This document shows, one piece after another, positions 9,320-12,501 of a stretch of 13,630 bases of DNA (positions are counted from its first letter, which is position 1; each line of letters begins with the position of its first letter). The DNA comes from a virus: UHGV virus genome UHGV-0353144; one strand, given 5' to 3'. Under the pieces are notes generated by a model. The model had not been told where the DNA came from. It searched no databases and worked only from the letters and a program-made list of their open reading frames with translations. Position numbers and translations under genes: made by a program.

Positions 9320-10756
9320 TCAGAATCCTCCTTTCTTCTTGGACTGCGGTTCCTCGCGTTCACGGCGGCGCATTTCAGCAGACTGTTGGTCTGTGTCATA
9401 AATAGCGCCATTTGCCTGAATGCAATACACCGTGCCGGTATTGCCATGACGATTGAGACGAAGGATTAGTTCGGTTTCACCAGGTGGAACACTGTCATCA
9501 AAAGCGCCTTCACGATGGATCCCAACCCAATAATCGCAATCCTGTTCAATCTGCCCTGTATCTCGTGAGTCACTTGGTAATGGGCGTTTATTGGTTCGGC
9601 TTTCCAATGCGCGGTTAAGCTGCGTCAGAAGCACAACAACGCAATCAAGCTCTTTGGCAAGGTTCTTCAGTCCTTTGGTGATCATGCCGTAGGCAAGGTC
9701 GTTGCGATCGGCCTTCTCAGCGGTCATTAGTGTCAGGTAATCGACCAGAATCATGCCAACACATCCTTTTTCTCGCTTGATTCGACGGCTTTCGCTGACG
9801 ATTTGAGCCAGAGATAATCCCGGCGTGTCGTCGATGTAAAGCAGGTCGATTTCACTCAAGCGATTGGCTGTTTCGATCGCCCTGTTGAAGTCACCATCGT
9901 AATCACCCTGATAGCCGTCATCAGCGTCATTTGTCGCCGGAAGGTAAAAAATATTCGGGTTAACACCAGACTTCTGCCCTACCAGTTTTTCCAGTATCTG
10001 ATCACGTGGCATTTCAAGGCTGAACATCAGAGCGGGCTTTTTCTCATGCACTGCGCAGTTGATTGCCATCTGGCTGTATAGCGTCGTTTTACCCATCTTA
10101 GGGCGAGCGCCAATGACAAACAGAGAGCCTTTCACCAGACCTTTCGGTGACAGCATCCTGTCCAGCGATGGGATCCCTGTGCTCATTCCCCGTTGTTCGC
10201 CTGACGGGTCAAATCGCTTCTCAAGGTCGCTAACCCAGCCTTCCATGACCTCACCAAATGAGCGAAGGCCGCGACGCGATCCGGTTTTTGCATGGTCTGT
10301 CAGTTGCGTGAAAATCGCCTGAATAGCTTCGTACTTCTGCGTTGCAGTCATTCCATTGCGGGAATAGAGCAATTCCGTCGCTTCAGTCATGCGGTTGATG
10401 GCGTAGCGTTCCATTGCGGTTTCACGAACCTGCATTGCATAGGCAACAATGTTTGCTGCGCTTGGCGTGTTCTTTGCGATCTCAGCGATATAAGCAAAAC
10501 CGCCAACAGACGCCGTTAACGATTTACGCTCCAGTTCATCGAAAAGCGTCAGGCCATCTACTGGCTTTTGCTCCCGGTGCATTCTGGTTATTTCTTCGAA
10601 AAGGATTTTGTGTGGTCGGCAGTAAAATGAATCAGGCTTCAGCATCGCCAGAACTTTCTGGACGCGCTCACTGCTGTCATCATCCAGAAGCAATCCACCA
10701 ATCACCGCCTGCTCTGCCTCGATGCTATGGGGCGGCGCATAAAAATTATCGGTCAT
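9320..10756 (-). CDS. replicative DNA helicase (DnaB family, P22 gp12-like)
   Basis: ORF 9320..10771 begins at GTG; ATG at 10756 has a GAGGG SD. Walker A GARPKMGKTT and a DnaB-like N-terminal domain (IEAEQAVIGGLLLD). Start overlaps the O-like gene end by 11 nt. Confidence 0.9.
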   Translation of the reverse strand: MTDNFYAPPHSIEAEQAVIGGLLLDDDSSERVQKVLAMLKPDSFYCRPHKILFEEITRMHREQKPVDGLTLFDELERKSLTASVGGFAYIAEIAKNTPSAANIVAYAMQVRETAMERYAINRMTEATELLYSRNGMTATQKYEAIQAIFTQLTDHAKTGSRRGLRSFGEVMEGWVSDLEKRFDPSGEQRGMSTGIPSLDRMLSPKGLVKGSLFVIGARPKMGKTTLYSQMAINCAVHEKKPALMFSLEMPRDQILEKLVGQKSGVNPNIFYLPATNDADDGYQGDYDGDFNRAIETANRLSEIDLLYIDDTPGLSLAQIVSESRRIKREKGCVGMILVDYLTLMTAEKADRNDLAYGMITKGLKNLAKELDCVVVLLTQLNRALESRTNKRPLPSDSRDTGQIEQDCDYWVGIHREGAFDDSVPPGETELILRLNRHGNTGTVYCIQANGAIYDTDQQSAEMRRREREEPQSKKKGGF

Positions 10757-11645
10757 CGTGTTCACCCTCACGAACTTTCAGGTAGGTATTATCGTTAAGC
10801 AGGAAATCAAATCCCTTTTTGTGCCAGACGGTTCCGCGCTGATGGTTTGGGCGCTCTTCGAACATCCATCGGCAATTTTCGCCTACGTAGCTCAAATAAT
10901 TTCTCCAGTCCTGCATCGTGAACCCATGCCCGTCGAGCTGGCGGGTTATCACTCCGGCTTTGCGCCAGAACGTTCGGATCTGGTTTTTACGCTTGTCATT
11001 CAGTGCGCGGATTCTTGGCGCTTCAGGAAGGATTTCGTGGTAAGCATCGACAACATCCTGACAGCTAACGGAAGGTTTTTTCTTGTCAGACTTTTTGTCT
11101 GCTGTGGCACTCTCTAATACGTCAGTATTAGAGATAATATTATTATATTCTTTATCTGTGGTAATTTGCTGGTAATCTGCTGGTACAGTATTGCTTACAG
11201 GCATTGGTATTTCTGGCTTTGAGGTGGTAATTTGCTGGTAATCTGCTGGTACAAAATTTGACTGATAATCGTCATATTTCTCTACCGAGAAAACTGAGAA
11301 TTTACCGTGTGAAACCCAGTCAATCATGCCGAGTTTTTTGAACTTTCTAAGCAGGTACTGAACGCGATCTGGTTTGAGTCCTGTTTCAAACGCCAGAGAG
11401 TTTCTACCGCCAAGTAGCTTCCCTCTGCCTACCAGAATTTCTCCTGCGTCAGTCATTACATACTCAGGCGTATGCTTTGCTTTGAGGATTAAGTGAACCC
11501 ACAGATGCGCAGCTTCTGCGTCCTTGTAAAACGGCACATCCATAATTTTACGGTGCAGCAAGGCATACCCCTTACCGCTGCTTTGATGCGGTTGTTGTAG
11601 CCTTCTGGCCTCTCTGGCTTCGGCTAGATTAGATATGTTACTCAT
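10746..11645 (-). CDS. replication initiator (O-like / P22 gp18-like) containing the origin iterons
   Basis: 299-aa ORF with AAGGAG SD. Sits upstream of the DnaB helicase and contains direct repeats plus an A/T-rich tract in its coding sequence, which show up as the duplicated peptide [10 protein letters not shown]-terminal HTH-like segment. Confidence 0.75.
11131..11253. repeat. replication origin: A/T-rich tract plus two perfect 30-bp direct repeats built from 11-bp GGTAATnTGCT units
   Basis: GTGGTAATTTGCTGGTAATCTGCTGGTACA occurs at 11158-11187 and again at 11224-11253 (perfect copies, 36-bp spacer). Each copy holds tandem 11-bp sub-repeats. A/T-rich tract at 11131-11156. All inside the O-like ORF, as for lambda ori. 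Confidence 0.7.
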
Positions 11646-11784
11646 GACCTTTCTCCTTCTGCATCAGCTTCACTTTTTCCAACTCAGCCCGGAATCGACC
11701 AGGCTGCTTGAAGCTGGACAGGAAGCGATCACGTAGTATGTTTTTGTGCATTTTGTCCTGGTAAGGACTGAGTGGTTTTGTCAT
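11638..11784 (-). CDS. hypothetical small protein (48 aa)
   Basis: Hand-translated: [48 protein letters not shown]. Strong SD GAGGAGG 4-5 nt upstream of ATG at 11784. TAATG stop-start overlap with the 134-aa ORF; its stop overlaps the O-like start. Below the ORF-track size cut-off. Confidence 0.4.
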
Positions 11785-12188
11785 TAAGCCTCCTCTACTT
11801 CGTAATCAGCGAAGTAACCAGTAGACATTTTTAAAAACCTTGATTCGGTGACTGTGTAAGCCTTCCTTCCTTTCCTCTCCTTGCCTTCAGGCTCTATGAG
11901 GTGGCACGAATAAATGATTCTGCGCTGCCAGTTGCCTGGCATTTCCACCACTGCCAGAACCTCAAGAATTCTCTTTCCTTCAGCATCAGCGGTGTAAAAA
12001 CACTGATCACCATAACCACAATCGGCTGGCTCATAATTTTTGTGACAACCGCCAATCCAGCGCTCATCGGTATGCACGTTGCCGTCATAAGACTGATAAT
12101 CTGTGCATACGAAGATAAATGGATATACGGTTTCGAACTTGTCACCGGCCTTTATGCCGGTGTTTACTTGCTTGGTTTGTCCTGGCAT
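11784..12188 (-). CDS. hypothetical Cys/His-rich protein (134 aa) inserted between cII and the O-like gene
   Basis: ORF-track ORF 11784..12395 (203 aa) would overlap cII by ~170 nt. ATG at 12188 has an AGGAG SD (ACAGGAGTAATT-ATG) 34 nt after the cII stop. Product [65 protein letters not shown]... has 5 Cys and 3 His. No family recognised. Confidence 0.6.
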
Positions 12189-12222
12189 AATTACTCCTGT
12201 TACTTGGCGTAACACAGTGTGC

Positions 12223-12501
12223 TTAAGCGTCCAGACTGCTACCAACAGCTGGGCGTTTTTCTTTTGTGAGAATCGATGCCACCTGCTGAGCAAGTCTCGC
12301 CATCTCATCATCAACAACTCCCCATTCAAGAACAGCCAGAAGCATGGCCATCTTTGGGATAAAGCTGTCTTTCCATCGCGAAATTTGCGATTCATTAATC
12401 CCTAACGCGTCGGCAACCTTTCGCTGACCACGTACAGCAATTCGATTCAGGATGTTGCTTGTAATTGCATTCGCTTTCTTGCGAGTACTTGTAAGTTGCA
12501 T
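12223..12501 (-). CDS. cII: CII-like transcriptional activator
   Basis: ATG at 12501 with AAGGAA SD gives MQLTSTRKKANAITSNILNRIAVRGQRKVADALGINESQISRWKDSFIPKMAMLLAVLEWGVVDDEMARLAQQVASILT, homologous to lambda CII (shared ...SQISRWK...PK...MLLAVLEWGVVDD...MARLA.QVA.ILT) by recall. Confidence 0.85.
   Translation of the reverse strand: MQLTSTRKKANAITSNILNRIAVRGQRKVADALGINESQISRWKDSFIPKMAMLLAVLEWGVVDDEMARLAQQVASILTKEKRPAVGSSLDA

Follow-up and report, generated by a model that had tools for sequence, protein, structure and literature searches.

Does a pair of perfect repeats inside the gene of an O-like initiator mark the place where a prophage starts to copy its DNA, and if so, to which of the known origin types does it belong? 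The repeats were noticed in a DNA stretch of 13,630 nucleotides from UHGV virus genome UHGV-0353144, the whole of which is referred to here as the window. There is hardly any doubt that they form the replication origin of a lambda-like prophage, located inside the gene of the very protein that recognises them. The reading that best explains the observations, and which comparison with related sequences makes very probable, is a theta-replication origin of a lambdoid prophage of the HK022/HK620/VT2-Sakai type, situated within that part of the initiator gene which codes for the linker. The elements of the locus are listed in Table 1 in the direction of transcription.

Table 1. Elements of the origin and the genes around it, in window coordinates.
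Element	Position	Strand	Description
O-like replication initiator gene	10746..11645	-	299 aa
N-terminal winged-helix domain (predicted fold)	11262-11645	-	aa 1-128 of the initiator
Iteron cluster 1	11220..11252	-	three head-to-tail 11-bp units GTACCAGCAGA, TTACCAGCAAA, TTACCACCTCA
Spacer	11187..11219	-	33 bp; holds the clusters 66 bp (6 x 11) apart; sequence variable among relatives
Iteron cluster 2	11154..11186	-	11-bp units GTACCAGCAGA, TTACCAGCAAA, TTACCACAGAT
AT-rich tract	11135..11157	.	AGATAAAGAATATAATAATATTA (gene strand), 23 bp, 8.7% G+C
Palindrome	11111..11134	.	perfect 10+4+10, TCTCTAATAC-TGAC-GTATTAGAGA (inverted-repeat search)
Initiator linker			aa 129-178 of the initiator
C-terminal domain			~aa 173-299 of the initiator
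DnaB-type replicative helicase gene	9320..10771	-	483 aa; shares 26 nt with the end of the initiator gene

The repeated element is a 30-mer that reads TGTACCAGCAGATTACCAGCAAATTACCAC on the gene strand (the minus strand of the window) and GTGGTAATTTGCTGGTAATCTGCTGGTACA on the plus strand. In agreement with the preliminary description, both copies, at 11158-11187 and 11224-11253, are perfect, and the whole array lies inside the ORF 10746-11645 on the minus strand. The copies are 66 bp apart from start to start, and for exact 30-mer repeat pairs in 13.6 kb the expectation by chance is ~8e-11. Tandem Repeats Finder returned a period of 11 in both arrays (11154-11185 and 11225-11251), which bears out the tandem units of 11-bp periodicity that had been described. 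Each 30-mer holds three 11-bp units with the core TTACCA(G/C)C, so that the total is six phased iterons at 0, 11, 22, 66, 77 and 88; the 7-bp core occurs three times per 30-mer, the third copy having a diverged tail, and in cluster 2 the tail of the last unit enters the AT-rich tract. The units are direct repeats without dyad symmetry. With up to one mismatch allowed, the 11-mer TTACCAGCARA has four matches in the window, all of them in the array and on the minus strand, and the core TACCAVC is found 11 times against 2.9 expected, five of the 11 being within the array. A seventh TACCA, located in the spacer at 11209, was rejected as an iteron; it is off the 11-bp phase and is kept in CobraSix despite the different iteron there, and therefore probably reflects coding constraint. 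Similarly, TTACCACGAAA at 11033-11043, 132 bp (12 x 11) from an iteron, was taken as a coincidence, since it belongs to a segment of the C-domain shared with Sf6, whose iterons differ.

Across three successive units the TACCA core is read in frames 1, 0 and 2. As a period of 11 bp cannot be divided by three and one word appears in three frames, the repeat acts on the DNA and not on the protein. Each 30-mer encodes an identical decapeptide, the two copies being 22 residues apart, and the decapeptide itself is not internally repetitive. The helical periodicity claimed for the array holds within each triplet of iterons. On relaxed B-DNA with 10.5 bp per turn, however, the two triplets are ~100 degrees out of phase, hence a location on the same face of the helix needs underwound or wrapped DNA between them, which would itself favour melting.

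The A/T-rich tract adjoining the repeats, also part of the preliminary description, belongs to the stretch with the highest A+T content in the window, where 23-mers with only two G or C residues start at 11126-11135. It lies directly downstream of the iterons in the direction of the gene, as in origins of the three-part type, and is presumed to be the DNA-unwinding element. Beyond the tract follows an inverted repeat, again as in three-part lambdoid origins. This palindrome is the third element of the origin and part of the feature, whose extent had been given correctly for the array but with a start too far to the right; the palindrome extends it leftward. As both lambda (GTCAGAG...CTCTGAC) and P22 (CCCCC-TAAA-GGGGG) carry an inverted repeat in the equivalent place, the palindrome completes the classical three-part anatomy. 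As single-stranded DNA, the palindrome of the window has a folding energy of -10.1 kcal/mol (z = -5.4).

The origin takes up positions 394-535 of the 900 in the initiator gene, between the codons of the winged-helix domain and those of the C-domain, and thus in the linker. By comparison, this corresponds to the lambda-style placement of an origin within gene O, with the AT-rich tract next to it, that had been suggested. The lambda origin, with four iterons in gene O, likewise lies within the linker-coding middle of the initiator gene, and iterons, A/T-rich tract and inverted repeat follow one another in the same order in the direction of transcription. The initiator belongs to PHROG 345, 'replication initiation O-like' (E = 2e-87). 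Searches with the initiator against Pfam, NCBIfam and the PDB sequences gave no significant match, in Pfam not even at E <= 10, and the alignment of its N-domain with lambda O by hhalign had a probability of 0.2%, that is, no relationship. Hence the term 'O-like' is appropriate for the position and the role of the protein, but not for its sequence, which has no detectable kinship to lambda O. A profile of 12 N-domains gave weak winged-helix hints against the PDB (best E = 0.02), and the domain is predicted to adopt a winged-helix fold, in which a helix-turn-helix precedes a beta-hairpin wing. By sequence family the initiator matches neither pSK41 RepA, which represents the RepA_N-type plasmid initiators (PDB 4pta), nor the N-domain of DnaD, and the fold match to RepA_N and the DnaD N-domain is no better than that to CRP, MarR and TFE, which are generic winged-helix regulators.

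The following gene matches the Pfam families DnaB_C (1.2e-60) and DnaB (5e-31), and carries the same annotation in the relatives. This agrees with the proposed pairing of the origin with a DnaB-type helicase rather than with lambda P. Upstream of the initiator are a cII homologue and a divergent cI-type repressor; the region as a whole is a lambdoid early-right operon. Matches to the DnaA box (TTWTNCACA, one mismatch allowed) are at chance level, with 25 in the window versus 26.5 expected and none between 10096 and 11990, so there is no evidence for a DnaA-dependent origin. A scan of 10700-12000 for promoters and terminators gave counts at the level of shuffled sequences. Between the cII homologue and a 48-aa hkaW-like ORF (11638-11784) there is a 203-aa ORF (11784-12395, minus strand), which belongs to PHROG 30464 (unknown function) and has no Pfam or NCBIfam match. 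HK620 and the loci of two initiator alleles described below (L069 and L070) have nothing in its place, and the homology to HK022 ends at 11784. On the opposite strand, inside the initiator gene, a 119-aa ORF (10758-11117, plus strand) is named 'hypothetical protein ORF b66' in the record of the Stx1-converting phage; it is probably a spurious call opposite the real gene.

For the comparison with relatives we used phages together with 51 prophage loci, found with a seven-sequence alignment in a collection of one genome per species; 44 of these loci are enterobacterial. Downstream of the N-domain codons the top self-match lag is 66 bp in 39 of the 44 enterobacterial loci and a lower-ranked one in three more, with secondary lags of 11, 55 and 77 bp. 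With 66 bp as the strongest spacing in so many loci, the layout of three plus three iterons is kept. The iteron word itself changes, with at least eight different words among the loci and similar variation among the phage relatives. TTACCAGCArA is found in the window, an Enterobacter and a Pantoea, and other lineages have TGTCCAGCCnn, GTGCCAACAnA, TGTCCAACGGn, AATCCAAnGGA, GATTCCCAGAA and others; the CCA centre is common to all of them. In more distantly related phages (Vibrio, Lactobacillus, Listeria, Pseudomonas) and prophages (Bacteroidia, Elusimicrobia), a single series of three to six direct repeats of 11 bp stands in the corresponding place after the N-domain, and an A-rich tract comes next. 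The linker peptide changes completely among the relatives, while the 11-bp and 66-bp geometry of the DNA stays. In the Pantoea locus (L020), where the N-domain has 70% protein identity, the identity to the window is 83-90% in the iteron bins, as compared with 63% in the bin with most of the spacer and 47-83% in the bins coding for the N-domain. The iteron DNA thus appears, by this comparison, to be more conserved than the adjoining coding DNA. A 12-bp period occurs in loci from Silvania (L035) and Leclercia (L038), which have TTACCAA-type repeats with lags of 12, 56 and 80, and in a Prevotella locus (L065) with about ten tandem 12-bp units, ATGAGCAAACAA. As 12 is a multiple of three, the argument from the reading frame does not apply to these three loci.

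The palindrome is present in all 44 enterobacterial loci, as a perfect stem of 9-11 bp with 22 distinct sequences. Its distance from the second cluster is nearly constant, with the same position in 27 of the 44; the palindromes were chosen as the best within a search range of 110 nt per sequence, and their position is nevertheless nearly fixed. All ten pairs show compensatory changes and none is altered on one side only. Over the 22 distinct sequences 96.8% of the cells are paired, and the inner nine pairs are 100% Watson-Crick without any G-T wobble. The covariation score of 0.87 exceeds both the 0.21 of shuffles and the values obtained on sliding the partner columns, which do not go beyond 0.21; at the centre, T(A/G)A(C/A) is conserved. 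Because one-sided changes are absent and the inner nine pairs contain no wobble, the pattern fits a palindromic DNA duplex, or hairpins formed by both strands, better than an RNA structure. In the literature searched, we found no description of this covariation, which extends over more than 40 prophages.

Variation of the iteron word is accompanied by variation at residues 94-97, with which the predicted recognition helix begins. RVQY is found with TTACCAG, and also with the 12-bp variant TTACCAA, RIQY with TTCCCAG, RVKS with TGTCCAG, KVKS with TGTCCAA, and R(I/V)KY with GTGCCAA. These pairs fit a direct reading of the iterons by the predicted helix; since the lineages are few, related and not independent, the match between helix and word is a support for such reading and not a proof.

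An origin is not the only explanation that can be given for such repeats. Plasmid iterons often have double roles, control among them, and the array could likewise consist of initiator-binding repeats that serve mainly for autoregulation, titration, incompatibility or as a roadblock to transcription or translation, with the true origin elsewhere. We nevertheless consider a purely controlling array improbable, as the extreme AT-rich tract and the conserved palindrome, always at a fixed distance, correspond to the origin anatomy of lambda and P22, and the iteron word is clustered nowhere else in the 13.6-kb window. The palindrome and the AT-rich tract could also lie outside the origin and form an intrinsic terminator of antisense transcription, and a consensus scan does flag 11111-11134 together with TAATATTATT as a weak terminator-like site on the plus strand. 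However, the stem has only three G-C pairs, the tail is a mixture of A and T without a T run, one such site is found where 1.4 are expected from shuffles, and the 22 distinct sequences are devoid of G-T wobble in the inner nine pairs. The sole promoter-like site in 10700-12000, at 11715-11742 on the plus strand, is downstream of the palindrome and therefore cannot drive transcription into it. Taken together, this makes a terminator very unlikely.

A duplication of a peptide linker by slippage, leaving repeats without any role in the DNA, would account for two 30-mers that encode one decapeptide 22 residues apart, and alleles with three and four copies, described below, show that the linker tolerates expansion. 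Such an event does not explain the 11-bp period inside the 30-mer, with its three reading frames and a peptide that lacks internal repetition; furthermore, the relatives retain the 11-bp and 66-bp geometry despite a wholly changed peptide, and the iteron DNA is better conserved than the neighbouring coding DNA. The evidence from layout, word, frame and conservation together excludes a mere peptide duplication, and repeats without a DNA role are scarcely credible.

The right comparators for this origin are HK022, HK620, Sf6, ST64T and L. Over window 11050-11350 the identity to HK620 and HK022 amounts to 98.7-99.3%, the value for HK620 being 99.3% over 301 bp, and VT2-Sakai is 99.3% identical to the origin segment. 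The sequence of HK022 was reportedly presented by Oberto et al. in 1994. The comparison with related origins that had been recommended leads to HK620, whose GenBank record holds a two-piece rep_origin on exactly these 30-mers, mapping to window 11158-11253 in a gap-free match (NC_002730.1; Clark et al. 2001, J Mol Biol 311:657, as cited in PMC3349717). The window thus shares with the HK022/HK620-type lambdoid origin the rep_origin sequence, the layout of six repeats, and a PHROG 345 initiator combined with a DnaB-type helicase. HK620, HK022 and VT2-Sakai have identical 30-mers, the same initiator and the same DnaB-type helicase, and nothing of substance differs. Outside the replication module the window is a different mosaic, with another cII/cI region and the extra 203-aa ORF. 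At 99.2-99.6% identity, the initiator gene is also found in Wanchaivirus PDP110P2, VT2-Sakai, the Stx1-converting phage, Stx2 II and many other Stx phages.

A sister type is represented by phages L, ST64T and Sf6. They have the same layout as the window (3 x 11 bp, a spacer of 33 bp, 3 x 11 bp, AT-rich tract and palindrome), as well as the same C-terminal domain and helicase, but their iteron word is TGTCCAACG instead of TTACCAGCA, their recognition helix has KVKS instead of RVQY, and their N-domain is 46-57% identical to that of the window. In gene 18 of phage L, six imprecise 11-bp repeats, TGTCCAACGGA, have been described as the likely origin (PMC8022706), and the Sf6 record contains a parallel feature, a 'repeat region reminiscent of the phage lambda origin; similar to phage HK620'. 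The annotations of HK620 and Sf6 themselves rest on analogy with lambda. As the near-identical phage HK620 carries a GenBank annotation and the sister type is in print, the origin was already known; its finding is correct but ordinary, the arrangement is not new, and there is nothing categorically new in it. No binding, unwinding or origin-cloning study of the HK022/HK620 origin type was found in the literature searched.

The iterons are unrelated to those of lambda, as had been stated, and differ from them in both sequence and form. Lambda iterons are 18 bp long and dyad-symmetric, with a spacing of 20-24 bp, and are bound by O dimers, whereas those of the window are 11-bp direct repeats without a dyad; the partner of lambda O is P, which loads the host DnaB, whereas the window encodes a DnaB-type helicase of its own. 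The system therefore stands outside the Lambda O family (Pfam Phage_rep_O), to which neither the sequence of the initiator nor the type of iteron (18-19 bp with a dyad in that family) assigns it. P22, which had been named as a comparator, resembles the window in having the origin inside the initiator gene, a DnaB-type helicase (gene 12) and the three-part anatomy. It is however the wrong comparator, because the origin in its gene 18 belongs to another specificity class. There, four repeats of ~20 bp (TCGGTAAAAC...) were confirmed directly; they are absent from the window, and the P22 initiator is only ~25% identical to the L-type protein. The origin types of P22 and L have been described as different (PMC8022706).

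The relatives indicate where the two halves of this system have been joined. Sf6 shares ~55% identity with the window as far as gene position ~510, in the AT-rich tract, and 97-100% thereafter. An Enterobacter prophage (L017) shows the reverse, with 87-100% before the tract in all but one 30-nt bin and 63-87% after it, and the homology to mEp506 ends at window 11155. The AT-rich tract is thus a mosaic recombination joint between a module of N-domain and iterons and a module of palindrome, C-domain and helicase. The codons of the N-domain adjoin the iterons, and the two are therefore passed on together as a single specificity module. In the Erwinia phage Eho59 (vB_EhrS_59, L005 1077-2027), a GTGCCAAC-type N-domain, iterons and palindrome akin to those of a Klebsiella relative are combined with a different C-domain, and the partner is of the lambda-P type instead of a DnaB-type helicase. 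This natural domain swap can be used to test which part of the initiator recruits which helicase system. The number of modules varies as well. An initiator allele of 321 aa (L070, 2501-3466) has three copies of the 66-bp module of triplet and spacer, with nine iterons, and one of 343 aa (L069, 2501-3532) has four copies, with 12 iterons; unequal recombination between the 30-mers is the likely source of both alleles.

These observations suggest how the origin may work. The N-terminal winged-helix domains would bind the six 11-bp direct repeats head to tail, one domain per repeat, and the two triplets, 66 bp apart, would form a single, one-sided nucleoprotein array. The array could strain the adjoining AT-rich tract until it melts, upon which the palindrome just beyond would fold back into hairpins that mark or stabilise the edge of the bubble; this folding upon opening of the tract would mark the entry site of the helicase. 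The C-terminal domain would then bring in the DnaB-type helicase of the phage, with no need for a loader of the lambda-P type. Occupation of each 11-bp unit by a single monomer, a function of the palindrome and a contact with the helicase are all inferred. In lambda, origin binding is the task of the N-domain of O, while its C-domain recruits the helicase side (PMC12663957, PMC8022706).

Initiation could be mechanistically unlike that of lambda, with a head-to-tail winged-helix array and the palindrome as a structure-specific element that positions the helicase without a P-type loader; we put this forward as a tentative and rather doubtful proposal. PhoB-type response regulators bind 11-bp direct repeats, and the initiator may similarly place one winged helix per turn on its repeats, instead of dimers on iterons with a dyad. 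The palindrome may be extruded as a hairpin or cruciform when the AT-rich tract melts, and might in this form be the structure to which structure-sensing defences such as Lamassu or SbcCD respond at phage origins. While lambda replicates, Lamassu is enriched at its origin, according to recent evidence (PMC12663957), which gives the structural elements of such origins some current relevance.

Many Shiga-toxin prophages replicate from this type of origin, VT2-Sakai, the Stx1-converting phage and Stx2 II among them. All the biochemistry that we found for the origins of Stx phages deals with the lambda-type O/iteron system (PMC7466680). The comparison yields a set of natural specificity variants, with at least eight iteron words, each with a variant of the recognition helix, and in addition a swappable palindrome stem. 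They can be used to test the reading of 11-bp repeats by a winged helix and the loading of a phage-encoded DnaB-type helicase.

More than 100 contigs carry the 299-aa protein in exactly this form, and of 5426 complete E. coli genomes, 227 contain at least 80% of window 11100-11300. Near-identical initiator genes of the E. coli/Shigella type also occur in two assemblies of unrelated bacteria. One, on a 386-bp contig of Xanthomonas pisi (L025), matches the N-domain of the window at 100%; the other, in Chryseobacterium sp. 18061 (L050), combines TGTCCAAC iterons with the palindrome of the window. For the Xanthomonas contig, contamination of the assembly is likelier than a real transfer, while the Chryseobacterium case, inside a contig of 799 kb, is less clear-cut.
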